Source of the DNA: Planctomycetota bacterium
GTDB taxonomy: Bacteria; Planctomycetota; UBA1135; UBA2386
DNA: 64,000 nt
Direction of reading: 5' to 3'
NCBI GenBank assembly: GCA_046290465.1
Contig: JBKAGP010000001.1
Location: 3,552,001-3,616,000, forward strand
The notes beneath the pieces were generated by a model. The model was not told where the DNA came from. It did not search any database and was given only the letters and a program-made list of their open reading frames with translations. Below are positions 15,867 to 32,850 of the stretch, piece by piece. The first letter of the stretch is position 1, and each line of letters starts with the position of its first letter. A program made the position numbers and the translations under genes.

Positions 15867-15928
15867 GAAAAACCGGACCGCCCAAAACCCCGTTCGCCGG
15901 CCGTCGTCTTCACCGGCACGATCGATTC

Positions 15929-16480
15929 ATGAGCACTGCCGAACCGATCCTCGCAGAGCTGTTTCAGGCCCATCGGAGGGGCCTGGCGGGGGCGGTGCGC
16001 AGTGTGCTGGGTCCTTCGGAGGACGTGACCGAAGTGCTGCAGGACGCCTTCCTCAAGTGTTGGCGCGCGTGGCAACATGGCACCCGACCGAACGACCCGG
16101 TGGCATGGATCTTCGTCATCGTCTGGAACGCCGCAACCGACGCGAGGAGACGTCGGCAGCGACGACCCAACCACGAACCACTCGACGAGGAACGAACCGT
16201 GTCCGTCACCGCCAGAACCACCCCTTCGCCGTCACACGCGCTCGAGCAGCGCGAGGCGGTTGCAGAGGCCCAGGCCGCCGTCGCCCGGCTCAACGAGGAC
16301 GACCAGCAGGTGTTCCTGCTGCGCGTCGCCGGCGAGCTCAGCTACGAGGCCGTCGCCGCATCGCTGAGCATCCCCGTCGGCACCGCCAAGACCCGCATGC
16401 GCCGCGCGCTGATGCAGCTGCGCAGCATGCTCGGCGCCAAGGCCACGACCACCAACTTCACCAAGGAGAGCCTGCAATGA
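15929..16480 (+). CDS. ECF RNA polymerase sigma factor
   Basis: Region 2 EVLQDAFLKCW...AWIFVIVWNAATD; region 4 LSYEAVAASLSIPVGTAKTRMRRA. Confidence 0.9.
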   Translation: MSTAEPILAELFQAHRRGLAGAVRSVLGPSEDVTEVLQDAFLKCWRAWQHGTRPNDPVAWIFVIVWNAATDARRRRQRRPNHEPLDEERTVSVTARTTPSPSHALEQREAVAEAQAAVARLNEDDQQVFLLRVAGELSYEAVAASLSIPVGTAKTRMRRALMQLRSMLGAKATTTNFTKESLQ

Positions 16481-19400
16481 GCGCGCCCGGCAACTGGAGC
16501 CCCGAAGAACGCGAGCAGCTGGTGCAAGAGCTGCTCGAACTGCACTTCGGCTGTCACGAAGCCCCTGACCAACTCGAGGCGCGCCTCGCCCAGGACCCGG
16601 CGCTGCGCGCGCTGCAGGCAGAGGTGGCGGGCCAGGCCGGCGTCATCGAGGAGGCCGTCAAGCCCGAGCAGGCGCGCCTCGAACTGCCCGCCGACGACGT
16701 GCACGCAAGCGCCGCTCGCCGCCCGCGCTGGTACCACACGCCGATCGGCCGCGTGACGATGGCCTTTGCCGCCGCCGCGCTCGTGGTCCTCGGCCTGCTC
16801 GGCCTCGAGCGCGTACACGACTGGCAGCTCGACGGCTACCGCGAGGACCACCTGCACCTGACCGTCAGCGCACCGCGCGCGGTCCCCGCCGGTGCCCCGT
16901 GGAGCTTCACCGTCGAGACCAAGGACCTGTCCGGCGGCCCCGCCGAATGCCGCGTGCGCTGGACCGCCTTCGGGGAGAAGGGCGAGGCGCTCGCCAGCGG
17001 CGAGGCGCCGACCGAGGCCGGCAGCGCAGTCATCGCGATGGGCAGCGACCTGGCCGTGCCGACGCGCGTCGAGGTCGTTGCGAGCCACCACGCCGACGAG
17101 GCGAAGCAGATCTTCGCGCTGTCGACGGCCTACGCCAGCCCGCTCGTGCACGTCAGCACCGATCGCCCGGTCTACCGTCCGGGCGAGCCGGTGTTCGTGC
17201 GCGTCACCGTGCTCGACCGCGTCTCGCGGCTGCCGCTGAAGCGGCCGTCGCCGATGTATGCCGAGCTGATCGACGCCAAGGGCGCATCGATCGCCAACGA
17301 CTTCGACGGTGTCGTGCCGAACGGCGTCGGCACGTTCCGCATGCAGGTCCCGGCCGACAGCGCCGGCGGCGTGCACCAGGTCCGCGTGCGCTCGCAGATG
17401 CAGCTGTTCCCGGAGGAGACCGCCGAGCTCGTCGTGCGCTCGTTCCGCAACCCGCAGCTCGATCAGGAGATCGTGCTCGATCGCAAGAGCTACGCGCCCG
17501 GCGCGCGCGGCGCGGCGACGGTGACCGCGACGCGGCTCGGCGACGGCCAGCCGTGCTCGCTCGCCAAGGTGCGCGGCGCGGTGATCGTCGACGGCAACGA
17601 GGTCTGGAGTGAGGAGAGCGGCCTCGGAGCTCAGGGCGAGATCACGTTCCGCTTCCAGATCCCGAAGGAGATCGAACGGGGAGCGGCGCGCTTCGTCGCG
17701 CAGGTGACGGACGGCGGCGTCGTCGAGTCGGCGATCGAGCCGTTCGTCGTGCCGACGGGGAAGGTCGCGGTGGCGGCCTTCCCCGAGGGTGGCGAGCTGG
17801 TCGCCGGCATCGAGAACGGCCTCTACCTCGAGTGCACCGACGCGCTCGACCGCCCGATCGACACCACCGGCGAGCTGATCGACGCCGACGGCCGCCGCGT
17901 CGCGTCGTTCCGCACGCAGCACCAGGGCCGCGTGCGGATGACGTTCGTGCCCGAGAAGGGCGCCACCTACCGCGTCCGCGTCGCCGGCAAGGCCGAGACC
18001 TTCGAGCTGCCGGCGGTGCGCGAGTCCGGCGTCGCGATGCGGCTGCTCGGCGACGACGTCGGCGCCGGCCAGCCGCTGCGCATGGCGCTCGGCGGCCGCG
18101 GCAACGGCCCGTGGGTGCTCGGCGTGTTCTGCCGCGGCGTGATGGTCGCGCAGACGACGCTGCGGCCGAACGACAACGGCGAACTGCACGCGCGCCCCGA
18201 GATCGCGCTGCCCGACACCGCGATCGGCGTGCTGCGCGCGACCGTCTTCGACCGCGAGCTCAAGCCGGTCGCCGAGCGCCTGCTGCGCCGCCGCAGCACG
18301 CACACGCTCGACGTGCGCCTGGCCACCGAGCACGACGTGCTGGCTCCCGGCGACCGCCAGCAGGTCAAGGTCACCGCGATCGACGAGACCGGTGAGCCAA
18401 CCCGCGCCGTGCTCGGCGTGCGCTGCACCGACGTCGCCGCGACGTCGATGGGCGACGAGCCGCGCATCTCGCTGGTCGACCAGGCGATGCTGTTCGGCGA
18501 CGTGCACGAGATGGAGGACCTCGGCGACTTCTTCCTGTCCAACGAGGCGGGTGGACGCAACGCCGACCTCTTGCTCGGCACGCGCGGCTGGCGCCGCTTC
18601 GTCTGGCGCAACGACGCCGCCGCCAAGCAGGCGATCGTCGACGCCGGCGACGCCGGCAAGGGCATCCTGGCGCGCGAGGGCTTCTCGCAGACGCCGCAGG
18701 TGCGCAGCAACCTGAAGGCCGCGATGGCGCCGTTCGCGGAGGCGCAGGAGCGCGTGCGCGACTCGCGGCAGCTGCTCGCGGGCATGGCCACGCTCGGCAT
18801 CATGCTGCTGCTGTTGCTGATCGTCGCCGAACTGGTCGCGTGGGGCCTGCGCAGCTGGCGCAGCGTGTCCGCGTCGACACAGGTGTTCGCCGGCATCGTG
18901 GTCGCGGTCCTGCTGTTCGGCTCCTTCTCGGTGCTACAGCTGTTCGGCTCGCAGCTGCTGGAGCCGGCGGACGGCGCCGCGATGGCCCCGGCGCGGAGCG
19001 GCGAAGCCGTCGACTTCGAAGGACCGTCGATGTTCGCCACGCACGCCCAGCCACTCGCTGCACCGGCGTGGCGCGGCCTGCAAGCCGGCAGGTACTTCAA
19101 CGACGGCATTGCCGGCGACATCTCGTTCGACTACTTCGGCATCGGCGCCACCGCCGGCGGTGGCCAGATCGACCTGCCCGTCGTGCACCGGTTCTCGTCT
19201 CGCTTCGACGACGTGCAACCGTCGCTCTTCCTGCCGCCGCAGATCCGCGAGATCCCGAGTGAGGAGGCCGAAGAACTCCTCGGCGAAGCCGCCCCGCGTT
19301 CGGATGCCTACTTCGCGCCCGCGTTCCGCTACGACCCCAGGACGATTCTGCAGAACTACAAGCAGCACTGGATCCAGCGCCAGTACGCCCACCGCCACGT

Positions 19401-21513
19401 CGCCTCCGAGCAACGCCGCGACTTCACCCCGACGATCTACTGGGACACGCTGCTGCTGACCGACGAGCGCGGCGAGGCGACGATCGCGTTCGACACCACC
19501 GACGCCGTCACCACCTGGCAGGTCGAAGCTGACGCGCACGTCGCGATCGGCGACACCGGCCGCCTCGGCCAGGCGTCGACGACGTTCACGACGCAGCTGC
19601 CGCTGCAGATCGAGCCGAAGCTGCCCGACGAGGTCTCGTGCGGCGACCGCCTGCAGCTGCCGGTCGCGGCAATCCTCAAGCAGGCCCGCGCCGGCGAGGT
19701 CGCGCTGACCGTCAAGCTCGGCCCCGGCCTGCGCCTCGGCAAGGACGCGCCCAGCGCGATCGCGCTCGAGGGCCAGAGCGGCGGCACCGGCCGCGGCCGG
19801 GCCCTGCTGCCCGTCGAGGTCACCGACTTCGTCGGCACCACCACGATCGAGCTGGAGGCTCGCGCCGGCGGCTTCGTCGACCGTGTGCGCCACACGCTGC
19901 AGGTCGCGCCGCGCGGCTTCCCCCACCGCCGCTCGGCCGGCGGCCAGGCGATCGCCGGCACCGATGGCCGCTGGTCGGTGACGATCCCGGACGACGCGGT
20001 GCCGGGCTCCGGCCAGGCGACGCTGGTCGTCTACCCGTCGCCGATCGCCGCGCTGACCGAAGGCCTCGAGGGCATCCTGCGCGAACCGCACGGCTGCTTC
20101 GAGCAGACCAGCTCGTCGAACTACCCCAACACGCTGGTGCTCCGCCTGATCGAGGCCAGCGGCGACGACCTGCCGCGGATCGCGGCGCGCGCCCGCGACC
20201 TGCTGCCGCGCGGCTACCGCCGCATCGTCGGCTACGAGTGCCCCGAGAAGGGCTACGAGTGGTGGGGCAAGGACCCCGGTCACGAGACGCTGACGGCCTA
20301 CGGCCTGCTGCAGTTCCACGACATGTCGAAGGTCTACGACGTCGACGTGGAGATGGTCGATCGCACCCGCAGGTGGCTGCTCGGACGGCGTGACGGCGAA
20401 GGCAACTTCGTGCGACCGACCGGCAACAGCCACAGCTTCGGTGGCCGTGACCCGAAGGTCACCAACGCCTACGTCACCTACGCGCTGCTGCAGACCGGCA
20501 CGCCGGAGGCGGAGCTGAAGGTCGAGATCGACGCGCTGGTCGCGCGCATCGAGCAGGCCGACGCCTACGAGCTGGCGCTGATCGCGTGCGCGCTCGCCCT
20601 CACCGAGCGCGTCGAGGCCGCCGAGGCGCGCGACCGCCTCGCGTCGCTGCAGCAGGACGACGGCTCGGTGCCGGGCGCCAGGACGACGATCACGATGAGC
20701 GGCGGCCGCGACCGGATCGTCGAGACCACCGGCTTCGCCGTGCTGGCGTGGCTGCGAGACCCGGCCAAGGCGGGCCACGTGCGCAAGGCCGTCGCCTACC
20801 TGCATGCGGCGCGCGGCGGCCACGGCACGTTCGGCGCCACGCAGGCGACCATCGTGGCGCTGCGAGCGCTGACCGAATACGCGACCGTCAGCCGCACGAT
20901 GCGGGAGGCCGGTGCGATCCAGGTCTTCGACGGCGAGCGCCTGCTGGCTCGCCAACCGTTCGCGGCGCACGACGTCGGGCCGATCAAGTTCGAACTCTGG
21001 AACGAACTCACGCCAGGCGCACACTCGCTGCGCATCGAGCTCACCGGCGGCGGCAAGTCGCCGATGCCCTGGTCCGGCGAGATCGCCTACCACGCCGAAC
21101 TTCCGGCCACCGACCCGCTGACGCAGACGGCGGTGACGACCCGGCTGCGCGAGGCGAGCGTCGAAGAAGGTCGCACCGTGGCCCTTGACGTCACCATCGA
21201 GAACGTCACCGACGACGAGCTGCCGACCCCGATGGCGATCGTCGGCCTGCCGGCCGGCCTCGACATCTCGACCGAGGTGCTCGAGGACATGAAGAAGGCC
21301 CAGCGGTTCGACTACTGGGAACTGCAGGGCCGCGAGCTGGTGCTCTACTGGCGCAAGCTCGATGCCACCGAGCGGCGCGAGCTGACGTTCGACCTGACGG
21401 CGCGCATCCCGGGCACGTCGCGCGGGCCAGCGTCGCGGTCCTACCTCTACTACACGCCGCAGCAGAAGCAGTGGGCGCAGCCGCTGGAGATCGAGGTGCG
21501 CCCAGCGGGATGA
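16477..21513 (+). CDS. Alpha-2-macroglobulin-family thioester protein with N-terminal anti-sigma-like domain and TM helices
   Basis: MG2 motif STDRPVYRPGE, LLGTRGWRRF, RRDFTPTIYW, thioester PHGCFEQ (20092-20106), LTAYGL, C-terminal YLYYTP. ATGA overlap with the sigma gene, preceded by AAGGAG. Confidence 0.88.
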   Translation: MSAPGNWSPEEREQLVQELLELHFGCHEAPDQLEARLAQDPALRALQAEVAGQAGVIEEAVKPEQARLELPADDVHASAARRPRWYHTPIGRVTMAFAAAALVVLGLLGLERVHDWQLDGYREDHLHLTVSAPRAVPAGAPWSFTVETKDLSGGPAECRVRWTAFGEKGEALASGEAPTEAGSAVIAMGSDLAVPTRVEVVASHHADEAKQIFALSTAYASPLVHVSTDRPVYRPGEPVFVRVTVLDRVSRLPLKRPSPMYAELIDAKGASIANDFDGVVPNGVGTFRMQVPADSAGGVHQVRVRSQMQLFPEETAELVVRSFRNPQLDQEIVLDRKSYAPGARGAATVTATRLGDGQPCSLAKVRGAVIVDGNEVWSEESGLGAQGEITFRFQIPKEIERGAARFVAQVTDGGVVESAIEPFVVPTGKVAVAAFPEGGELVAGIENGLYLECTDALDRPIDTTGELIDADGRRVASFRTQHQGRVRMTFVPEKGATYRVRVAGKAETFELPAVRESGVAMRLLGDDVGAGQPLRMALGGRGNGPWVLGVFCRGVMVAQTTLRPNDNGELHARPEIALPDTAIGVLRATVFDRELKPVAERLLRRRSTHTLDVRLATEHDVLAPGDRQQVKVTAIDETGEPTRAVLGVRCTDVAATSMGDEPRISLVDQAMLFGDVHEMEDLGDFFLSNEAGGRNADLLLGTRGWRRFVWRNDAAAKQAIVDAGDAGKGILAREGFSQTPQVRSNLKAAMAPFAEAQERVRDSRQLLAGMATLGIMLLLLLIVAELVAWGLRSWRSVSASTQVFAGIVVAVLLFGSFSVLQLFGSQLLEPADGAAMAPARSGEAVDFEGPSMFATHAQPLAAPAWRGLQAGRYFNDGIAGDISFDYFGIGATAGGGQIDLPVVHRFSSRFDDVQPSLFLPPQIREIPSEEAEELLGEAAPRSDAYFAPAFRYDPRTILQNYKQHWIQRQYAHRHVASEQRRDFTPTIYWDTLLLTDERGEATIAFDTTDAVTTWQVEADAHVAIGDTGRLGQASTTFTTQLPLQIEPKLPDEVSCGDRLQLPVAAILKQARAGEVALTVKLGPGLRLGKDAPSAIALEGQSGGTGRGRALLPVEVTDFVGTTTIELEARAGGFVDRVRHTLQVAPRGFPHRRSAGGQAIAGTDGRWSVTIPDDAVPGSGQATLVVYPSPIAALTEGLEGILREPHGCFEQTSSSNYPNTLVLRLIEASGDDLPRIAARARDLLPRGYRRIVGYECPEKGYEWWGKDPGHETLTAYGLLQFHDMSKVYDVDVEMVDRTRRWLLGRRDGEGNFVRPTGNSHSFGGRDPKVTNAYVTYALLQTGTPEAELKVEIDALVARIEQADAYELALIACALALTERVEAAEARDRLASLQQDDGSVPGARTTITMSGGRDRIVETTGFAVLAWLRDPAKAGHVRKAVAYLHAARGGHGTFGATQATIVALRALTEYATVSRTMREAGAIQVFDGERLLARQPFAAHDVGPIKFELWNELTPGAHSLRIELTGGGKSPMPWSGEIAYHAELPATDPLTQTAVTTRLREASVEEGRTVALDVTIENVTDDELPTPMAIVGLPAGLDISTEVLEDMKKAQRFDYWELQGRELVLYWRKLDATERRELTFDLTARIPGTSRGPASRSYLYYTPQQKQWAQPLEIEVRPAG

Positions 21514-21574
21514 CTGTCGCGATGACTGTCGCGATGACTGTCGCGATGACTGTCGCGATGACTGTCGCGATGAC
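21509..21574 (+). repeat. 12-bp tandem repeat GATGACTGTCGC x5.5
   Basis: Five perfect units plus GATGAC; the first unit contains the A2M stop codon. Confidence 0.95.
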
Positions 21575-21599: not shown

Positions 21600-22955
21600 A
21601 TGCGCCTCGCCGCCGCCATCCTCCTCGCGCTGACCGCGACCGCCGCCGGTCAGGCCCCCGCGAACTACTACAACACGGTCGTCACCGCGAACGCCGCGCA
21701 GCTGCGCGCGACCCTGCACGCGGTGATCGACGACCACCAGCGGTTCCCCTACACGTCGGGCGGCACCGACACGTGGGACATCCTCGAGGACGCCGACCAG
21801 GATCCGGGCAACGCATCGCGCATCCTCGACGTCTACCGCAACGCGTCGTACGCGAAGGTCGGCGGCGGCAACTCCAACTACAACCGCGAGCACGTCTGGC
21901 CCAACAGCTACGGCTTCCCGAACGACGGCGGCGGCAACTACCCCTACACGGACTGCCACAACCTGTTCCTCTGCAACATCGGCTACAACGGCCAGCGCGA
22001 CCGCAAGCCGTTCGACAACGGCAGCGCCAGCTGGGTCGAGCTGACGACCGTCGGCGGCGGCAGCGGCAGTTACCCGGGCAACTCCAACTGGCGCACGACG
22101 AGCAACTCGCCGGGCGGCTTCGAGGTCTGGCAGGACCGCCGCGGCGACATCGCGCGCGCGCTGTTCTACATGGACGTTCGCTACGAGGGCGGCACGCACC
22201 AGAACGGCAGCGCCGAGCCGGACCTGATCCTGACCGACACGGTGTCGTTGATCACCAGCAGCGCGACCGGCAACAACGAGTCGGTGGCCTACATGGGCAA
22301 GCTCAGCGTGCTGCTGCAGTGGCACGCGCAGGACCCGGTCGACGGCAAGGAGATGGCACGCAACGACGCGGTGTTCGGCTACCAGGGCAACCGCAACCCG
22401 TTCGTCGACCACCCGGAGTGGGTCGACTGCATCTTCGCCAACCAGTGCAGCACCTCGACGTCGCAGCGCGAGCCCGAGGTCTGGATCAACGAGCTGCACT
22501 ACGACAACGCCGGCGCCGACCTCAACGAGTTCGTCGAACTGGCCGGCCGCGCCGGCGAACGCATCGACGGCTGGATGCTGGTCGCCTACGACGGTGCCAC
22601 CGGCCAGGCCTACGACCGCGTCGCGCTGCGCGGCACGTTCGCCGACCAGCAGAACGGGTTCGGCACGTTGTCCTTCGCGTTCCCCGGCCTACAGAACGGT
22701 CTCGACGGGGTCGCCGTGGTGACCTCGACCGGAGTCGTGATGCAGTTCCTCAGCTACGGCGGCACGTTCGTCGCCAGCAACGGCGCCTGCAAGGGCCGCA
22801 GCTCGGTCGACATCGGCGTCACCGAAGGCGCCTCGACGCCGGTCGGGTTCTCGCTGCGGCTCTCCGGGACCGGCAGCGGCTACGCGCAGTTCGCCTGGCA
22901 GCCGCCGTTCGTGCAGACCCCCGGCACCCCGAACGTCAGCCAGACCTTCCAGTAA
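21600..22955 (+). CDS. Secreted endonuclease I family nuclease (Bsn/EndA-like) with C-terminal lamin-tail-like domain
   Basis: Signal peptide; NREHVWP, DCHNLF, RGDIARALFYMDVRY, QGNRNPFVDHPEW; WINELHYDNAG..EFVEL. Confidence 0.9.
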   Translation: MRLAAAILLALTATAAGQAPANYYNTVVTANAAQLRATLHAVIDDHQRFPYTSGGTDTWDILEDADQDPGNASRILDVYRNASYAKVGGGNSNYNREHVWPNSYGFPNDGGGNYPYTDCHNLFLCNIGYNGQRDRKPFDNGSASWVELTTVGGGSGSYPGNSNWRTTSNSPGGFEVWQDRRGDIARALFYMDVRYEGGTHQNGSAEPDLILTDTVSLITSSATGNNESVAYMGKLSVLLQWHAQDPVDGKEMARNDAVFGYQGNRNPFVDHPEWVDCIFANQCSTSTSQREPEVWINELHYDNAGADLNEFVELAGRAGERIDGWMLVAYDGATGQAYDRVALRGTFADQQNGFGTLSFAFPGLQNGLDGVAVVTSTGVVMQFLSYGGTFVASNGACKGRSSVDIGVTEGASTPVGFSLRLSGTGSGYAQFAWQPPFVQTPGTPNVSQTFQ

Positions 22956-23147: not shown

Positions 23148-23239
23148 GGGCGTTCGGCGACGGAGGTGACAACGGTGTCACGAACCCACGTTCGGCGGGA
23201 CGTCGGCGCCGCGCGCTCATTCGCTAGGATATGCGCGCC

Positions 23240-26200
23240 ATGCCTCGTCCGACCCGCCGACTCCTCGGGGGCGTTGCCCTCGTACTGACCACGACCGCCG
23301 CCGCCCAGCACGACGGGGTCGTGCCCGAGCCAGCCGCCGCCGCCAGCGTCGACTACCTGCGCGACGTGCGGCCGATCCTGGCCGAGCACTGCTACAGCTG
23401 CCACGGCCCCGACCAGAAGGAACGCAAGGGCGACCTGCGCCTCGACCTGAAGAAGGACGCGTTCGCCGACCGCGGCGACTACGCAGTCGTCAAGCCCAAC
23501 GATCCGGACGACTCCGAACTGCTGCTGCGCATCACCAGCGACGACCCCGACGAGGTGATGCCGCCGCCGGACTGCGACGACGCGCTGAAGCCTGCCGAGG
23601 TCGAGGTGCTGCGCAAGTGGATCGCGGAAGGCGCTGGCTGGCAGGAGCACTGGGCGTTCGTGCCGCCCAAGCGGCCGGCGACGCCACCGGTTCAGGACGG
23701 CGACTGGACCCGCAACGACATCGACGCGTTCGTGCTCGCACGACTCGAACAGCAGGGGCTGCGTCCCAGCGGTGAGGCGACCCGCGAACAGTGGCTGCGG
23801 CGCGTCACGTTCGACTTGATCGGCCTGCCGCCGACTCCGAAGGAGATCGACGCCTTCTTGCGCGACACCTCGGCCGACGCCTACGCCAAGGTCGTCGACC
23901 GCCTGCTCGCCGACGAACGCTACGGCGAGCGCATGGCGACCGACTGGCTCGACGCCGCCCGCTACGCCGATTCGAGCGGCTACCAGCGCGACAGCTCGCG
24001 CGAGGCGTGGAAGTGGCGCGACTGGGTCATCGACGCGCTCAACCAGAACATGCCGTTCGACCGGTTCGCGATCGAACAGCTGGCCGGCGACCTGCTGCCG
24101 GAGCCGACGCTGGACCAGCGCATCGCGACCGGCTTCAACCGAAACCACCCGGTCAACACCGAGGCGGGCGAGGAGCTCGACGAGTACCGTTCGGCCTACG
24201 TCATCGACCGCGTGCACACGACGGCGACGACCTTCCTCGGCCTGACGGTCGCGTGCGCGCAGTGCCACGACCACAAGTACGACCCGATCTCGCAGAAGGA
24301 GTTCTACTCGTTCTACGGGTTCTTCAACTCGATCAAGGAGCGCGACAACGGCAGCGGCCGCAACCCGAAGCCGGCGATCGCAGCCCCCGACGAGGACCAG
24401 CTCGCCAGGCTGCGCGACCTCGAGGCGCGCATCGAGATGCTCAAGAAGCGGCTCGAACAGGACGACCCGATCACCGACCAGTTCCAGACGCGCTGGGAGA
24501 ACGCGACGCGCAAACGGCTCGGCGGGCCGATCGCGTGGACGCCGCTGAAGCCGACCGAGTTCATGGCGCGCTACGGCTCGCGGCTGGTGCTGCAGGACGA
24601 CCACTCGGTGCTCGCGACCGGTCCGACGCCGTCGCGCGACACCTACGACCTCGTGTTTGCGCCCGGCAAGCGCAAGATCCAGGCGATCCGCATCGAGGTG
24701 CTGCCGGACCCGTCGATGCCGCACGGCGCTTCGGGCCGCGCCGACGACGGCCGCTTCATCCTGTCGCGCCTGACGTCGCGCATGACCAGCGTCTCGGACA
24801 GCAGCGACCCGCCGCTGATCGCCTACGCGCTGGCCGAAGCCGACATCAACCAGAAGCGCGACCGCGACGAGCACTACCTGACCGCGATCAACCCCGGCTC
24901 GTTCGGTGCGTCCGTCGCGGTCGAGGACGACTCGGGCAGCGGCGGCTTCCGCCGTTCGTTCGGCGGCTGGAGCATCGCCGGCGACGAGCGCAAGCAGGCA
25001 CGCGAGGCGGTGCTGATCCCGATCGAACCGCTCGACTCCAACGCGATGTCGCTGCTGCGGCTGACGCTCGAACACAACTCGCGCAACAAGTTCCGCAGCC
25101 TGATCGGCCGCTTCCGCGTGTCGTTCACCGAGGACCCGCGCGTCCGCGAGCAACTGGTGCCGCTGGCCGAGACGCACTGGCGCAGCATCGGGCCGTTCCC
25201 GGCCCCGTCCGTCGCAGCCGCGCACGCGCTGCCGTTCGGCCCGGAGAAGGACCTCAAGGAGCCCAACTGGAAGAAGAAGCACAACCAGCCGATCCTGCCG
25301 AAGAAGGAGGAGGCAAGCAGCAAGAAGCCGGCGGGCGGCGGCAAGCCCGGCGAGAAGGCGCCGGCGGCCAATGCCGCGGTCGCCAAGGGCAAGCCGCGGC
25401 CAGCCGGCCCGAAGACGGCCGAGGCCGGCAAGGGCAGGGCGGACACGCCGAAGCCCGCGGCGACGACGGGCGCGGCGAAGGGCAAGCCGACCGGCAAGGC
25501 CGACCCGAAGCCGGTCGCCGCGGCGCCGGCGAAGAAGCCCGCCCCCCAGCAGCAGGACGACGAGAAGGACGACGAGCAGGCCAGGCCGAAGCGCAAGCCG
25601 AAGCCCAAGCGCCTCGCGTGGACCGAGCAGACGAAGTGGCGTGACGGCAGCCGCGCGACCGTGCCCGTCACCGGACCGGCGTCGGCGACCTACCTGTCGC
25701 GCACGCTGACGACCAGGCAGCCGCGCACCGCGCGCATCGAGTTGTCCGGCGGCGAAGGTGCCAAGGTCTGGCTCAACGGCAAGGTCGTCGGCGACTTCGC
25801 GCCGAGCCCGACCCCGGCGACGCCGCCGAAGCCGCAGACCGGCAGCCCGATGGCGTTCGACCCGGCCGACTTCGATCCGGAGACCTTCGACTTCGCCAAC
25901 TTCGATCCGGCGATGTTCGAGAACTTCGACCCGTCGCAGCTGCGCCGCAGCCGCTCGACGAGCAAGCCGCGCGAGCTGCGCATCGGCCTGCGCAAGGGCG
26001 AGAACCACCTCGTCGTCAAGCTGACCGGCAAGGGCAGTTCGCCGTCGTCGTCCCGCCGCGGTGGCGGTTCGTCGACGAGCCCGTCGCCGATGTCGCGACG
26101 CAGCCGCAGCAGCGGCACGTCGTTCACGTTCGAGATCGTGCCCGAGGGCGACGACGTGCTGAACTACGAGACGATGCTCGCCGTGCGCGGCCGCGCCGGC

Positions 26201-27559
26201 GACGCGCCGAGCAAGGCCGCCGAAGCCAGCGTGAGCAAGCCGGACGGCGACAAGGCCGACAAGAAGAGCAAGCAGCTGACCCCGGTCGAACGCCGCGCCA
26301 AGGTCGCTCGCGAATGGTACCGGACCCGCATCGACGTGGCCGGCCGCGTGCTGGCCGACGAGCTGCGCAAGCTCGAGCGCGAGAAGGGCGAACTCGAACG
26401 CACGCTGCCGTCGGCGCTGGTCATGGAGGAGCTCGACGAGCCGCGCAAGACGCGCGTGTTCGTGCGTGGCGACTACCGCAACCCCGGCGAGGAGGTCGAG
26501 GTCGGCACGCCGTCGATGCTGCCCCCGATGCCGAAGGACCTGCCGAAGAACCGCCTCGGCCTGGCCAGGTGGCTGATGTCGGGCGATCACCCGCTGACCG
26601 CGCGGGTCACCGTCAACCGGGCGTGGCAGCAGTTCTTCGGCCGCGGCATCGTCAGCACGGCGGAGGACTTCGGCATCCGCGGTGCGCAGCCGAGCCACCC
26701 GCAGCTGCTCGACTGGCTGGCGACCGAGTTCGTGCAGAGCGGCTGGAACCTCAAGAAGCTGCACCGCTCGATCGTGCTGTCGGCGACCTACCGCCAGAAC
26801 GCGCACATGTCGAAGCAGGCCCTGGCCAGCGACCCCGACAACGTGCGGCTGGCGCGCGGCCCGCACCAACGCCTGACGGCCGAGATGGTGCGCGACCAGG
26901 CGCTGCACGTCGCCGGCCTGCTCAAGCAGAAGGTCGGCGGCAAGAGCGTCAAGCCGTTCCAGCCCGAGGGCCTGTGGCGCGCGACGCTCGGCTCGGGCCG
27001 CTGGTCGCAGGACAAGGATGACGAACGCTACCGCCGCGGCCTCTACGTCTACTGGAAGCGCGGCGTGCCGTACCCGTCGTTCATGGCGTTCGACGCGAGC
27101 AAGCGCGAGACCTGCACGGTGACGCGCACGCGCACGACCACGCCGCTGCAGGCGCTCGTCATGCTCAACGACCCGGTCTACGCCGAGGCCGGCCGCCACC
27201 TGGGCCAGCGCCTGCAGAAGGACGGCGGCGACGACGATCGCGCCCGCATCGCGTTCGGCTTCAAGCTGGTCGCCTCGCGCGCGCCCGAGCCCAAGGAGGT
27301 CGAGCTGCTGACCCGGCTGCTCGGCCAGCTCCGCAAGCACTACGAGGCCAACGACAAGGACGCCAAGGCGGTGCTCGGCCTGGAGGAGAAGAAGCCGAAC
27401 TCACGAGGGCGCTCGCGCGGCACCCCGACACCGAAACCCAAACCCGTCGCGCGGTCGTCGAAGCAGCGCAAGGACGACGTGCCGCCGGCCGAGGCCGCGG
27501 CCTGGGCGCAGCTCGGCTGCACGCTGCTGAACCTCGAAGCCGCGATCCGGAGGGGCTGA
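23240..27559 (+). CDS. Planctomycete cytochrome c / DUF1549 / DUF1553 protein with large insertion
   Basis: CYSCH and CAQCHDHK heme motifs; [60 protein letters not shown]. Confidence 0.92.
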
Positions 27560-27561
27560 TC

Positions 27562-28998
27562 ATGAACATGTCCGAACACCTTTCGCGCCGTTCCTTCGTC
27601 GGCGGCAGCGCCATGGGCCTCGGCTCGCTGGCGTTCTCGATGCTGTCGCAGCGCGGCCTCGCCCAGACTGCAGCGCCGACGCTGCAGGGACCGCAGGACC
27701 CCGAATGGAAGCTCGACAAGGCGCAGGCCAAGCGCGTCGTCGTGATCTTCCTGTCGGGTGGCCTGTCGCAGCAGGACCTGTTCGACGAGAAGCCGCTGCT
27801 CAACGAACGCCGCGGCGAGCAGCTGCCGCCGTCGGTGCGCCAGGGCGGCCGCGTCTCGGGCCTGACCGAGCGCCAGGGGCAGCTGCCCGTGGTCGGCAGC
27901 AAGTTCGAGTTCGAGGACTACGGCAAGTCCGGCCTGCGCATGTCCGAACTGGTGCCGCACCTCGGCGAGGTCGCCGACGACCTGTGCCTGATCCGTTCGC
28001 TGCAGAGCGACCACGTGCTGCACGAAGCCGCCAACACGATCTTCTTCACCGGCACGCAGCTGCTCGGCAGACCGTCGTGGGGCGCCTGGTCGTCGTACGC
28101 GCTCGGCGACGGCAAGAGCAACCTGCCGGAGTTCGTCGTGCTGCTGTCCAACCCCAACCCGTCGACGCCGCTGCACCCGCGGCTGTGGCACAACGGCTTC
28201 CTCGAGGGCCGCCACCAGGGCGTTCCGTTCCGCAGCGGCAAGGACCCGGTGCTGTTCGTGAAGAGCCCGAAGGGCGTCGACGAGAAGGTGCGCAAGTACC
28301 AGCTCGACGCGTTGAAGGAGCTCAACCAGATGGAGGCCGGCCGCAGCGGCGACCCGGACGCGGTCGCGCGGCTGGCGGCCTACGAGACCGCCGCGCGCAT
28401 GCAGACGAGCGTGCCCGAACTCGCCGACCTGTCGGACGAACCGGACGAACTGCTCGAGGACTACGGCGCCGAGCCGGGCGAGAGCAGCTTTGCCAACAAC
28501 TGCCTGCTGGCGCGCCGCCTGCTCGAGCGCGGGGTCAAGTTCGTGCAGCTGTGCGACGCCGGTTGGGACCACCACTTCAACATCCCGCGCGTGCTGCCGC
28601 GCAAGTGCGAACAGGTCGACAAGCCGACCGCCGCGCTGATCCGCGACCTCAAGAACCGCGGCATGCTCGACGACACGATCGTGGTGTTCGCCGGCGAGTT
28701 CGGCCGCACGCCCTACTGTGAGGGCCCGCTGGCGTTCGACACCTACGGCCGCGACCACAACAATCTGGCGTGCTCGGCGATCGTCGCCGGCGGCGGCTTC
28801 AAGGGCGGCTACGCGCACGGCAAGACCGACGACTGGGGCTGGTCCGCCGCCGAGGACATCGTGCACGTGCACGACCTGCACGCGACGATCCTGCACCAGC
28901 TGGGCATCAACCACGAGAAGCTGACCGTTCGCAGCCAGGGCCGCGACTTCCGCCTCACCGACGTCGCCGGCCGCATCGAACCCCGACTCCTCACCTGA
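27562..28998 (+). CDS. DUF1501 family protein (Tat signal)
   Basis: SRRSFV Tat motif; GGLSQQDLFD, CLLARRLLERGVKFVQ, WDHH, GEFGRTP, GRDH, HDLHATILH. Confidence 0.92.
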   Translation: MNMSEHLSRRSFVGGSAMGLGSLAFSMLSQRGLAQTAAPTLQGPQDPEWKLDKAQAKRVVVIFLSGGLSQQDLFDEKPLLNERRGEQLPPSVRQGGRVSGLTERQGQLPVVGSKFEFEDYGKSGLRMSELVPHLGEVADDLCLIRSLQSDHVLHEAANTIFFTGTQLLGRPSWGAWSSYALGDGKSNLPEFVVLLSNPNPSTPLHPRLWHNGFLEGRHQGVPFRSGKDPVLFVKSPKGVDEKVRKYQLDALKELNQMEAGRSGDPDAVARLAAYETAARMQTSVPELADLSDEPDELLEDYGAEPGESSFANNCLLARRLLERGVKFVQLCDAGWDHHFNIPRVLPRKCEQVDKPTAALIRDLKNRGMLDDTIVVFAGEFGRTPYCEGPLAFDTYGRDHNNLACSAIVAGGGFKGGYAHGKTDDWGWSAAEDIVHVHDLHATILHQLGINHEKLTVRSQGRDFRLTDVAGRIEPRLLT

Positions 28999-29592: not shown

Positions 29593-32500
29593 ATGGAAGA
29601 TCTCCGCACAGACCCGCTGCTCGCCAAGACCACCGAGGTCAAGGGCTTCAAGGTGCTGCCGCCGTGCGTGCTCTACGCCCGCATCGGCGCCGGCGGCATG
29701 GGAGCGGTCTACCGCGGCCACCACCTCAACCTCGACATCGAGGTGGCGGTCAAGTGCCTGAAGCCCGGCCTCGTCGTCGACGACCCGACGTTTGTCGACC
29801 GCTTCAAGCGCGAGGGCCGCTCCGCGGCGCGCATCAACCACCAGAACGTGATCCGCGTGTTCGACGTCGCGGAGAACCTCGGCCTGCACTACCTGATCCT
29901 CGAATACGTGCAGGGCGAGACCGCGCGGCAGCGGGTCGAACGCAAGGGCCCGCTCGCGGTCCCCGAAGCGCTGCAGATCGTCTACGAGGCGTCGCTCGGC
30001 CTCGGCGAGGCGCACCGCATGGGGATCATCCACCGCGACATCAAGCCCGACAACCTGCTGATCTCGGTGCGCGGCCAGGTCAAGGTCGCCGACCTCGGCC
30101 TGGCCAAGCCTTCGATCGGCGGCGGCCAGTCGGTCGTGTCGATGGCGGGTCAGGTGATGGGCACGCCGCCCTACATGCCGCCCGAGCAGTGGGGCGAAGG
30201 AACGGTCACCAACGCGTCCGACGTCTGGGCGATGGGCGCGGTGCTCTACTACCTGCTGACGGCGCGCGAGGCGATCCAGGGCGACTCGCTCGCCAACATC
30301 ATGAGCCGCATCGTGCTGCAGGACTTCCCGGACGTGCGCGAACTGCGTCCGGACGTTCCGCACAGCGTCGCGGCGCTGATGGCCAAGGCCACGGCCAAGG
30401 ACGCGGGACAACGGTTCTTCGACGCCACCGAGCTGGCGCACGCGGTCGCCGAGTTGCCCGAACACCGCATCTCGCTGATCGACACCGACGCCGGTACGAC
30501 CGAGCTGCGCACGATGCTGTCCCCGCCGCCGATGCCGCAGCTCGACGAGATCAAGCAGCTGCTGCGCGAGGGCAAGGTCACGACGCGCAACCAGGCGGGG
30601 CCCAACGGCCCGGCCACGGACCGGACCGGCACGGACGGTACCGGCGGGAACGGCACCGACGAGCAAACGGCCGAACGGACCGGTGCGAGGTTTCGCTGGG
30701 CGATCGTGCTGCTGGTGCTCGTGCTCGGCGGCGGCGGGGCCACCGCATGGATCAACCGGGACGCGCTGTTCGGAACCTCGCGACCGTCGGACCCCGTCCC
30801 CAACCCGGCGCGACCGAGCGTCGACCCGCTCGCGCAAGCGCGCGAACTGCAGCAGCAGCAGCGCTTCGTCGCGGCGCTGGTCGCGGCGCGCACCGCCTTC
30901 GACGATGGCGACGTTGCCGAGGACCAGGTGCTGCTGTCGCAGCTGCGCGAGGGCAGCCGCGCGCAGCTCGCCACCGCGCTGCAGCAGCTCGCGCCGAAGG
31001 CGCCGGTGCCGCGCGACCAGCCGGTGCGCTTCGAAGGCCGCTACGACGGCCCGAAGATCGACGCGCTGCTGCTCGACGACGAGCCGGTCGAGCTGGTCGC
31101 CGGCAGCTTCGCCGCGACGCGCACGCCGCCGCCGAACGGCGCCATCGAACTGGCCGCGCGCATCACGCCGACGGACACCGTGCCGATCGCGACGTGGCAG
31201 GTGACGTTTGCACCGGCCGGCCGCGACGAGCCCGCCGCGGCACCGGTGCAGTTCGTCGGCGCGGTGACCACCGACCCCGCGCTCGGGCCGCGCAACACGA
31301 TCGGCCGGTTCCCGATCACGCTCGTGGGCCGCGCCAGCGAGCCGGATCTCGAACTGCTGCTCGGCGACCAGGTGCTGACCGCCGTGCAGTGGCAGCCCGA
31401 CGGCGCGTTCACGACCGGCATCCTGCTTGCCAGGGAAGGCCGCAACGACCTGCAGCTGACCGTGCGGCGCCCCGGCGAGTTCGACGGCGCCACGACCTCG
31501 CTCGAAGTCGTGCGCCTGATCGAGCCGCCGAACGCGCGGATCGTGAGCCCGGCTGCCGCGTCGATGTCGACCAACCGGACCCGGATCGACATCGAGGTCG
31601 AGGCAGACGAGTGGACCGACCAGGTGGTGGCCGTGCTGCGCGAGCAGCGCACGGCGCTGCAGCGCATCGACGGCGGCGAACGCTGGCAGACGCCCGCACC
31701 GATCGAGCTCGACGACGGCAACAACGCGTTGGTCGTCGAAGTTCGCAACCTGACCGGCAAGGTGCGTTCGCTGCCGCTCGACGTCACCTGCACGGCGCCG
31801 ACGCCGAAGATCACAGGCGTCGCGATCGAGGTCGGCGGCGAGCGTCGCACGGTGCAGCCCGGCGAACGCGTCTGCGTGAAGCAACGACCGGGACTCGAGG
31901 TCGCGATCGACGACCCGACCGCAAAGCTCGAGGTCGACGGAAACGCACGCGAGCGCCGGTTCCTGCTGTCCTCGGGCCAACCGGGCAAGGCCCGCTCGCT
32001 GCAACTCGTCGCGGTCCAGGGCAAGCGCCGTTCGAAGCCGTTCGGCCTGACGATCGTCGTCGACACCGAGAAGCCGACGCTGCGCGCCGACGCCGTGCCG
32101 CCGGCCGCGGCCGGCACCGAGGTCGTCGTGCGCGGCACCTGGTCCGACAACGTCGGGGTGCGTTCGATCGGCGCGATCGGTGGCGACGCTCCGAAGGCGA
32201 AGGTCACCCGCGACACGCCGCGCAGCGGCAGCTTCGAACTGCGCCTGACCGTCGGCGGGCAGAGCCGCAAGGTGCCGCTGCTGATCGAGGACGAGGCCGG
32301 CAACACGACGCAGACGCTGGTGACGATCGCGACCGCCACCGCGAGCCCGGTCGTGGTCGAGCCCGACCGGCCGACGCTCGCGCGCACGATCGACGCCGGC
32401 CAGTTCGAGGCGATCGGCGCGCTCAACCGCGCCGGCTACCCGAAGGCGCTCCGGCACAAGGCCACGCGCATCGAGCTGCTGGCGGTCGACCTGCCGGACG

Positions 32501-32850
32501 ACGGCGCGCCAACGCTCTACGTCGGTCGCGAGGTCGTCAGCGACGTGCAGTGGAACGGCGACGGCGACGGCAGCAACCAGGGCAGCCTGACCTGGCTGGA
32601 CGTCAACTCGAGGCTGCGCGAAGCGCGCTTCGCCGGCCTGCGCCTGCCCACCAAGCAGGAGTGGCAGCGCATCCGTTCTGCCAACGTCTCAGGCATCAAG
32701 ATCGGCGGCGCCCGCGAGTGGCTCGCCCAGTCGCCCGACGAGAGCGTCGACATGCGCCCCCTGTGGGACGGCAGGCAGGTGACCGCCGCCAAGCTACGCT
32801 TCTCCGACAGCTACACCGGCTTCCGCGTCGTCTTCGCCCCCACCCGCTGA
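29593..32850 (+). CDS. Membrane Ser/Thr protein kinase with extracellular Ig-like repeats and degenerate FGE-sulfatase-like C-terminus
   Basis: GAGGMG, VAVK, HRDIKPDN, DLG, GTPPYMPPEQ; TM WAIVLLVLVLGGG; C-terminal RLPTKQEW..REW..GFRV. Confidence 0.9.
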   Translation: MEDLRTDPLLAKTTEVKGFKVLPPCVLYARIGAGGMGAVYRGHHLNLDIEVAVKCLKPGLVVDDPTFVDRFKREGRSAARINHQNVIRVFDVAENLGLHYLILEYVQGETARQRVERKGPLAVPEALQIVYEASLGLGEAHRMGIIHRDIKPDNLLISVRGQVKVADLGLAKPSIGGGQSVVSMAGQVMGTPPYMPPEQWGEGTVTNASDVWAMGAVLYYLLTAREAIQGDSLANIMSRIVLQDFPDVRELRPDVPHSVAALMAKATAKDAGQRFFDATELAHAVAELPEHRISLIDTDAGTTELRTMLSPPPMPQLDEIKQLLREGKVTTRNQAGPNGPATDRTGTDGTGGNGTDEQTAERTGARFRWAIVLLVLVLGGGGATAWINRDALFGTSRPSDPVPNPARPSVDPLAQARELQQQQRFVAALVAARTAFDDGDVAEDQVLLSQLREGSRAQLATALQQLAPKAPVPRDQPVRFEGRYDGPKIDALLLDDEPVELVAGSFAATRTPPPNGAIELAARITPTDTVPIATWQVTFAPAGRDEPAAAPVQFVGAVTTDPALGPRNTIGRFPITLVGRASEPDLELLLGDQVLTAVQWQPDGAFTTGILLAREGRNDLQLTVRRPGEFDGATTSLEVVRLIEPPNARIVSPAAASMSTNRTRIDIEVEADEWTDQVVAVLREQRTALQRIDGGERWQTPAPIELDDGNNALVVEVRNLTGKVRSLPLDVTCTAPTPKITGVAIEVGGERRTVQPGERVCVKQRPGLEVAIDDPTAKLEVDGNARERRFLLSSGQPGKARSLQLVAVQGKRRSKPFGLTIVVDTEKPTLRADAVPPAAAGTEVVVRGTWSDNVGVRSIGAIGGDAPKAKVTRDTPRSGSFELRLTVGGQSRKVPLLIEDEAGNTTQTLVTIATATASPVVVEPDRPTLARTIDAGQFEAIGALNRAGYPKALRHKATRIELLAVDLPDDGAPTLYVGREVVSDVQWNGDGDGSNQGSLTWLDVNSRLREARFAGLRLPTKQEWQRIRSANVSGIKIGGAREWLAQSPDESVDMRPLWDGRQVTAAKLRFSDSYTGFRVVFAPTR

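Follow-up and report, generated by a model that had tools for sequence, protein, structure and literature searches.

According to the sections of PMC11506125 that describe DdvA/DdvS of Myxococcus xanthus, a class I anti-sigma domain of about 70 residues holds an extracytoplasmic function (ECF) sigma factor through sigma2 and sigma4, and this domain is joined to a very large periplasmic domain whose fold is akin to that of immune-type enzymes, with an RseP step and a defence output. In Bacillus subtilis, as set out in the part of PMC4183432 devoted to RsiV/sigmaV, the anti-sigma factor is itself the receptor for the enzyme that attacks, and it undergoes a conformational change that clears the way for its own breakdown. 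The type I bacterial alpha-2-macroglobulins (A2Ms), such as those of E. coli (YfhM/ECAM) and Salmonella, are presented in the relevant passages of PMC5764988 as envelope proteins that carry a CxEQ motif and a bait and trap proteases, are anchored as lipoproteins and are co-expressed with PBP1c. Here we describe a locus that shares features with each of these systems, located in a 64,000-nt stretch (hereafter, the window) of the genome of a Planctomycetota bacterium (assembly GCA_046290465.1, contig JBKAGP010000001.1, positions 3,552,001 to 3,616,000). In this locus, an ECF sigma gene is followed by a gene whose product, hereafter the fusion, carries an animal-type thioester protein behind a predicted sigma-sequestering domain; on balance, this protein appears likely to be a membrane receptor that frees its sigma factor when a protease cuts its bait.

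By analogy, the fusion may act like DdvA or RsiV, as a receptor anti-sigma factor for attack. It is important to note the differences: the fusion has a thioester protease-trap ectodomain, three predicted transmembrane (TM) helices, no zinc motif and, as predicted output, more trap, whereas DdvA is described in the same sections of PMC11506125 as a single-pass protein with a TPR-CHAT protease-like domain that controls a CBASS-CRISPR island. RsiV, in turn, is small, binds lysozyme non-covalently and is cut by signal peptidase (PMC4183432, same part), and it is not homologous to the fusion.

The stop codon of the sigma gene (TGA, 16478-16480) and the start codon of the fusion gene (ATG at 16477) share four bases, ATGA, just as the original prediction had read them. 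The upstream product is a two-domain ECF sigma factor, with Pfam matches to Sigma70_r2 (E 2e-13) and r4_2 (E 1e-12) and a TIGR02937 match above cut-off; as for its place among the ECF groups of Casas-Pastor 2021, the passages of that paper's text and supplement consulted for this purpose contain no macroglobulin. The genome, a single contig that is 94% complete, has one copy of the fusion. Conservation of the gene pair had been set beforehand, along with binding of the N-terminus to the sigma factor, as a point on which the prediction would stand or fall, and our survey of sigma-thioester gene pairs found it conserved, with the sigma gene upstream across 12 families. First, it lies directly upstream, with the same 4-nt overlap, in 17/17 close relatives having upstream DNA. 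Second, of 80 GTDB loci, 10 have the long form intact, and all 10, including that of Rhodopirellula baltica BR-MGV, have the sigma gene upstream. Third, a profile of the first 230 residues of the fusion, searched against 401 genomes of the phylum, matched 68 of them, the 25 strongest non-self matches representing the 12 families, and an ECF gene was found upstream on the same strand at 29/29 top phylum-wide loci, three of them at 290-590 nt. Even the weaker matches, most of which carry other ectodomains, sit just behind an ECF gene in 18 of 20 cases, and one of the two exceptions is at a contig edge. The distribution is patchy (a strong match in 14 of the 36 genomes of the bacterium's own family), and at a permissive threshold, used without a negative control, the N-terminal profile scores in 129 of the best 150 representatives at 50% identity. 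The fused form was not found in 251 Myxococcota genomes, in which two matches covered the anti-sigma part only; plasmid matches were only weak and partial (11 records), and the ESM Atlas yielded only generic A2M clusters.

The nearest relatives of the fusion are short secreted thioester proteins of myxobacteria, planctomycetes and other bacteria, which share 35-45% identity over the C-terminal half and an intact GCFEQ, but differ in their length of about 1400 aa, their signal peptide, their start at MG2 and the lack of a membrane hairpin. The 5' end is intact in 55 of them, and in 54 of these both the N-terminal domain and a sigma gene, sought within 1.5 kb upstream, are missing (three of the 55 had less than 1 kb of flank). 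The sole exception, L058 (6500-11089), has an N-terminus with the HxxxCxxC motif, a TM helix and an upstream ECF gene, and has neither MG1 nor the hairpin. This control, including L058, indicates that the N-terminal domain and the upstream sigma are present or absent together. Since L058 falls inside the secreted clade, it suggests a second recruitment of the anti-sigma module. Another protein, P0217, resembles L058.

The N-terminus of the fusion includes QELLELHFG at residues 17-25 and LEARLAQDPALRAL at 33-46. The AlphaFold2 (AF2) model of residues 1-73 contains three confident helices (9-23, 30-39 and 41-61, with a predicted local confidence, pLDDT, of about 94), followed by a TM helix; in the model, the hydropathy and the charge bias, this is the class I anti-sigma domain (ASDI) layout of a helical bundle and then a TM helix. 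Relatives are more explicit about this assignment: HxxxCxxC occurs in 5 of 75 aligned family members, a zinc motif is kept in 25 of the 129 representatives that match the N-terminal profile, Pfam zf-HC2 is found in 3 of 23 aligned relatives (best E 3.7e-8), and in L186 and P0084 this domain exceeds the Pfam cut-off of 22.2 bits (32.2 and 24.6 bits) on the same chain as TED. Against the PDB, the two best matches of the N-terminal profile are both anti-sigma factors, 3hug_B, which we take to be RslA (E 0.07), and RsiW (E 0.32), and both matches are weak. The original prediction had proposed modelling the sigma factor together with this N-terminus, and the predicted complex scored 0.82 against 0.01 for the best control, passing a mark that is reached by 116 of 157 solved pairs and 2 of 215 mismatched pairs; at least 94% of the contacts agree between runs and the pLDDT of the partner is at least 87. 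In this prediction, which is like complexes already solved, residues 13-28 of the fusion contact sigma4 and residues 53-72 contact sigma2, a dual interface that is the arrangement given for class I anti-sigma factors in the section of PMC7406223 dealing with them, where helix 1 lies on sigma4 and a distal helix on sigma2. The idea of an anti-sigma fusion is therefore well supported by the conserved pairing, the zf-HC2 domains of relatives and the controlled complex model: judged from sequence and models, the N-terminal part that is fused to the thioester protein has the properties of a class I anti-sigma domain.

The ectodomain has MG2, A2M and TED domains above Pfam cut-offs (TED, E 1.6e-27). 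The thioester motif had been called intact, and GCFEQ indeed occupies residues 1206-1210, the thioester bond itself being predicted; GCxEQ is present in 75/75 aligned members. The comparator has to be changed, from the E. coli-type A2M named originally to CD109, TEP1 and A2M of animals. Searched with the family profile, human A2M, TEP1 and CD109 give E-values of 1e-57 to 1e-60, against only 1.6e-19 for E. coli YfhM, and CD109 is the top match for TED; Foldseek ranks C3, CD109 and C5 first and ECAM 48th; and in the alignment His1319 shares its column with the His of CD109 (RVIHSE) and of TEP1. In the family alignment, the thioester segment is the most conserved stretch and the bait the least, and the fusion possesses the whole set of features that mark thioester proteins (MG domains, bait position, TED, C-terminal MG8, GCxEQ and specificity residue). 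By profile and predicted fold, then, the ectodomain is a member of the animal-type thioester family, far closer to CD109/TEP1/A2M than to YfhM. The metazoan proteins CD109, TEP1, A2M, A2ML1 and C3/C4 share with it the MG ring, the bait position, TED, GCxEQ and the His at the catalytic position, and CD109 is likewise bound at the cell surface; however, we know of no metazoan thioester protein with a cytoplasmic anti-sigma domain, an N-terminal TM helix or a membrane hairpin before the bait.

Types I and II of the bacterial A2Ms were ruled out as an identity for this protein. A type I A2M is excluded by the YfhM profile value, by the lack of a lipobox and by the lack of pbpC. A TM helix in place of a lipoprotein signal had been read correctly, since the protein opens with 73 hydrophilic residues ahead of the TM helix, there is no lipobox Cys and Cys26 is the only cysteine before residue 158, and the reported absence of an adjacent pbpC extends to the whole 94%-complete genome, in which TIGR02073 has no match. 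A type II A2M (MagD/YfaS), which has no CxEQ and sits in a six-gene operon, is excluded by the presence of CFEQ and by neighbours that are a sigma factor and a nuclease. We also set aside as family members L039 and L040, two thioester proteins of 1818 aa that are almost identical to each other, are encoded in a single genome and belong to another family; they show 30% identity over the C-terminal half only and have neither a sigma gene nor TM helices.

His1319 raises the question of whether the fusion could be a covalent contact sensor or adhesin, whose His-type thioester would bond carbohydrate hydroxyls of a surface, a predator or peptidoglycan, the tethering then triggering sigma. His-type thioesters prefer hydroxyls, as in C3 and C4B, and the alignment of this residue with the His of CD109 and TEP1 fits such chemistry. 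Nevertheless, of the 81 proteins aligned at the specificity residue, 42 have Asp and 34 have His, which means that hydroxyl chemistry is not conserved; planctomycetes are diderm cells, in which an inner-membrane protein cannot reach outside surfaces; and the bait is retained. We therefore consider a contact sensor quite improbable.

The predicted topology places the N-terminus inside, followed by TM1, the MG ring outside, a hairpin (TM2 and TM3), the bait outside and the C-terminal half outside, with three membrane crossings. TM1 is present in 72 of 75 members and is preceded by a mean of 3.7 K/R versus 0.2 D/E, which puts the N-terminus inside; an [AV]AA run lies within it in 67/75, similar to the cryptic degrons that RseA and RsiW carry. 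In the slot just before the bait, 74 of 75 aligned members have two hydrophobic helices and the remaining one has three, which gives a predicted hairpin in 75/75, and the loop of the hairpin is net positive in 74/74. In the fusion, AF2 draws helices over residues 746-792 and 799-824. The hairpin is absent in 6/6 secreted relatives. Sister forms have four or six helices in this slot, always even counts in those inspected, as would be expected if both flanks of the slot stay outside; individual examples with four, six or about eight hydrophobic helices are L162, L186, L183, L218 and L179-L181. The bait that follows has a pLDDT below 50, a top-residue frequency of 0.13 at residues 881-960 and a length of 75-191 aa across the family, and the alignment with human A2M resumes at residue 722 of the latter. 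In C3, the slot that holds the hairpin here is taken by the anaphylatoxin, and the thioester domain, once activated, moves down onto MG1; in the fusion, MG1 adjoins TM1. Because three membrane crossings are predicted, a cut in the bait would not simply shed the ectodomain.

With respect to the output of the system, the pattern AAWCS-N15/16-CGTC was found upstream of the sigma gene at 23 of 25 discovery loci and at 9 of 20 held-out loci, a set that left out L131, L134 and L135 as duplicates and L150 as too short. Among 23 other ECF loci it occurs at one, L153, which is itself a thioester fusion, and its chance expectation is 0.002 per interval searched. The sigma's own site is the best matrix site in the whole genome. 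As for a wider regulon, the genome-wide matrix scan gave no convincing other target, and a pattern search of 26 family genomes gave 26 matches, seven of them the sigma's own site, versus 19 for the reversed control. The motif is also found ahead of secreted thioester genes in three of the five genomes that have the sensor pair as well (L096, L116 and L126); it is absent there in the other two and in all 51 genomes without the pair (0/51), and coding-region controls gave 7/376. At three other loci (L075:11384-12010, L077:8826-9653 and L112:10825-11712), an ECF sigma gene and a separate anti-sigma-like gene come directly after a secreted thioester gene.

Taken as a protease receptor, the fusion would work as follows. 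Residues 1-73 would clamp sigma regions 2 and 4 in the cytoplasm, TM1 would present the MG ring at the outer face of the inner membrane, and the TM2/TM3 hairpin would anchor the bait to the membrane at its N-terminal end. A protease entering this compartment may then cut the long disordered bait, freeing the C-terminal half from the hairpin, so that the thioester domain would swing out and bond covalently to the attacker. The conformational change would loosen TM1, and RseP, which is encoded in the genome with a match above cut-off, could remove it together with cytoplasmic proteases and release sigma. Sigma would then direct transcription of the operon that encodes it and, in certain Pirellulaceae, also of a gene for a secreted thioester protein; with these as its predicted targets, the output would be more trap, a positive feedback. 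The proteases sensed may be foreign, but the sequence by itself does not distinguish between a foreign protease and one of the cell's own.

This last point leads to the possibility of an envelope-stress sensor, that is, a true anti-sigma factor in which envelope proteases belonging to the cell itself, either DegS-like or set free by damage, make the site-1 cut in the bait, with the trap as output rather than as detector of a foreign enzyme. Such a sensor would fit the standard ECF logic laid out in the part of PMC8103513 that treats it, RseP is available, and the sigma pairing is kept in relatives that have no thioester. On the other hand, the hypervariability of the bait in sequence and length suits a promiscuous bait better than a dedicated site, and what the sigma factor is predicted to control is the trap itself, envelope-repair genes not rising above background as targets. 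We regard an envelope-stress sensor as unlikely.

Several observations weigh against the protease receptor. The weak step is the coupling. In the passages of PMC11506125 on regulated proteolysis, site-1 cleavage canonically strips the ectodomain before RseP acts, whereas after a bait cut TM1 would still carry an MG ring of about 630 residues, and a further coupling step, for which no candidate was identified, would be needed. As to the promoter, its pattern was picked by eye, the spacer being widened from 16 to 15-16 nt after a match in 9/25, and the three sites ahead of secreted genes all belong to Pirellulaceae, which are kin and not independent. L184 (1593-4709) and L185 (3729-7691) end after MG6b, with no CUB, TED or MG8, and keep their cognate sigma, anti-sigma domain, hairpin and bait, while 24 representatives of at least 950 aa have no GCxEQ, some of them perhaps truncated; the thioester is therefore not required for pairing or signalling. 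L183 (3302-6328) likewise ends after MG6b and retains its upstream ECF gene, anti-sigma domain and hydrophobic helices. The hairpin-less L058 and P0217 imply in the same way that signalling does not depend on the hairpin. Finally, the fusion's own N-terminus has no Pfam or NCBIfam anti-sigma match and no HxxxCxxC, the motif that defines zinc-binding anti-sigma (ZAS) domains, and the complex model may have passed due to its likeness to solved sigma/anti-sigma pairs. Those two absences could also mean that the N-terminus is vestigial and the protein no more than a protease inhibitor anchored in the membrane, whose gene shares its transcript with that of a sigma factor under some other control. 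However, residues 1-40 are conserved to the level of the MG ring (0.60 in the family alignment), the domain co-occurs with the upstream sigma, and its modelled complex with sigma scores 0.82, which makes a vestigial domain the most improbable of the explanations considered.

A sister clade deserves special attention in relation to thioester chemistry. At eight genome loci (L179-L182 and L187-L190; for example, TGA at L180:5031-5033), the codon of the thioester Cys is an in-frame TGA followed by FEQ (PYG-TGA-FEQ), with an anti-sigma N-terminus and an upstream ECF gene in seven of the eight. A metagenome scan for TGA forms gave 26 loci (L214-L239), one of them a chance match. The gene selA is present in 8/8 genomes of this clade, and also in the genome of the window, which uses Cys. 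The hairpin after the TGA, compared with synonymous shuffles, has a mean z of -1.9, with 19 of 28 below -1, versus -0.3 and 6 of 34 for Cys codons. A UGA aligned with a conserved Cys, a downstream hairpin and selenocysteine machinery, the marks of a bacterial selenoprotein, come together in the sister clade, and this clade likely builds its thioester from selenocysteine, as far as nucleotide sequence can indicate. The word macroglobulin is absent from the main text of the selenoproteome papers PMC13188914, PMC13326102 and PMC12013277. Gene callers split the TGA-clade proteins in two, and in L219 and L224 two TGA forms lie in tandem, 4.8 kb apart. The likely selenocysteine points to selection on reactivity, which would suit a chemical sensor: the thioester would be opened without a protease, by small nucleophiles or oxidants (tick-over), and the change of conformation that follows would be the signal. 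The zinc motif kept in part of the representatives also fits. Yet sensors without a thioester exist and the fusion studied here has lost the zinc ligands, and we find a chemical sensor very improbable. The TGA clade, together with the three-pass hairpin, the animal-type ectodomain and the promoter, is a feature that goes beyond the original prediction.

The sensor form may have preceded the secreted bacterial forms, as two sequence trees, with the selenocysteine clade as outgroup, place the latter as one clade nested among the sensors. However, monophyly of the sensors is not rejected by the approximately unbiased (AU) test (p 0.17). Both forms may stand side by side: L081 (2-4678 and 6860-11053) has tandem thioester genes, one long and one secreted.

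Table 1. Features of the locus, in coordinates of the 64,000-nt window; all lie on the + strand.
Feature	Residues	Position	Strand	Basis or remark
Predicted autoregulatory ECF promoter		15885..15908	+	Motif; -35 AAACC 15885-15889, 15-nt spacer, -10 CGTC 15905-15908
ECF sigma factor P0002	183 aa	15929..16480	+	Pfam r2 and r4_2; TIGR02937
Anti-sigma/thioester-protein fusion P0001	1678 aa	16477..21513	+	Start overlaps sigma stop (ATGA)
Predicted zinc-free class I anti-sigma domain	1-73	16477..16695	+	AF2, complex model, zf-HC2 in relatives
TM1, Ala-rich, basic residues before it	~90-111	16744..16809	+	Hydropathy
MG1-MG6a beta ring and linker	126-745	16852..18711	+	AF2 pLDDT mostly >90; Foldseek
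Predicted TM hairpin, short basic loop, before bait	TM2 766-790, TM3 802-822	18772..18942	+	Hydropathy, AF2
Bait-like region	825-951	18949..19329	+	Disordered, variable length, least conserved
Thioester domain	1193-1468	20053..20880	+	GCFEQ 20092-20106, His1319 20431-20433
12-bp unit ATGACTGTCGCG x5, between fusion stop and nuclease		21510..21569	+	First ATG overlaps fusion stop
Endonuclease I-family nuclease, predicted secreted		21600..22955	+	Pfam Endonuclease_1 E 6e-35, signal-like N-terminus

The secreted nuclease gene noted directly after the fusion is present here (Table 1) but lineage-limited: a nuclease within 3.5 kb downstream was found in 10 of 36 loci, all of them close relatives, after 4 of 40 loci with flanks that were too short had been dropped. 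On this count, we rejected the nuclease as a core part of the system; it is an accessory neighbour, probably co-transcribed with the fusion in this genome. The first ATG of the intervening repeat is in frame with the nuclease, and the repeat is missing in relatives. A nuclease paralogue, 53% identical, lies elsewhere in the genome (G000:C1:3998993-4000231). Further along the window (23231-28998 and 29593-32850), there is a planctomycete cytochrome protein of the DUF1549/DUF1553 kind that contains a long insert of Lys, Pro and Ala, in addition to a DUF1501 gene and a Ser/Thr kinase whose large ectodomain is Ig-like.

To our knowledge, no role other than that of a passive trap is known for the macroglobulins of bacteria. 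In the literature searched, we found no description of a sigma-thioester fusion, Jogler 2012, Budd 2004 and Wiegand 2020 being outside its scope and possibly listing the Rhodopirellula pair, and no thioester protein acting as a transcriptional sensor. The broader picture, which we hold tentatively and a little short of evenly balanced, is that of a complement-like circuit of planctomycetes, in which a three-pass thioester protein would trap a protease covalently and report the cut to an ECF sigma factor, amplifying membrane-bound and secreted traps, in which the sensor form may predate the secreted bacterial forms, and in which a sister clade would make a natural selenoester. The variant with the likely selenocysteine would represent a family of selenoproteins that is not yet listed and whose chemistry is that of a selenoester. 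It has been proposed, as summarised in a passage of PMC13069473, that bacteria took thioester-protein genes from animals, and an animal-type thioester family that is old and diverse in Planctomycetota bears on this debate. Since Rhodopirellula baltica BR-MGV (L095) is a cultured carrier of the pair, direct testing is possible. If the protease-receptor reading is true, this family would be a general receptor for protease attack, a bacterial sense-and-respond echo of complement.

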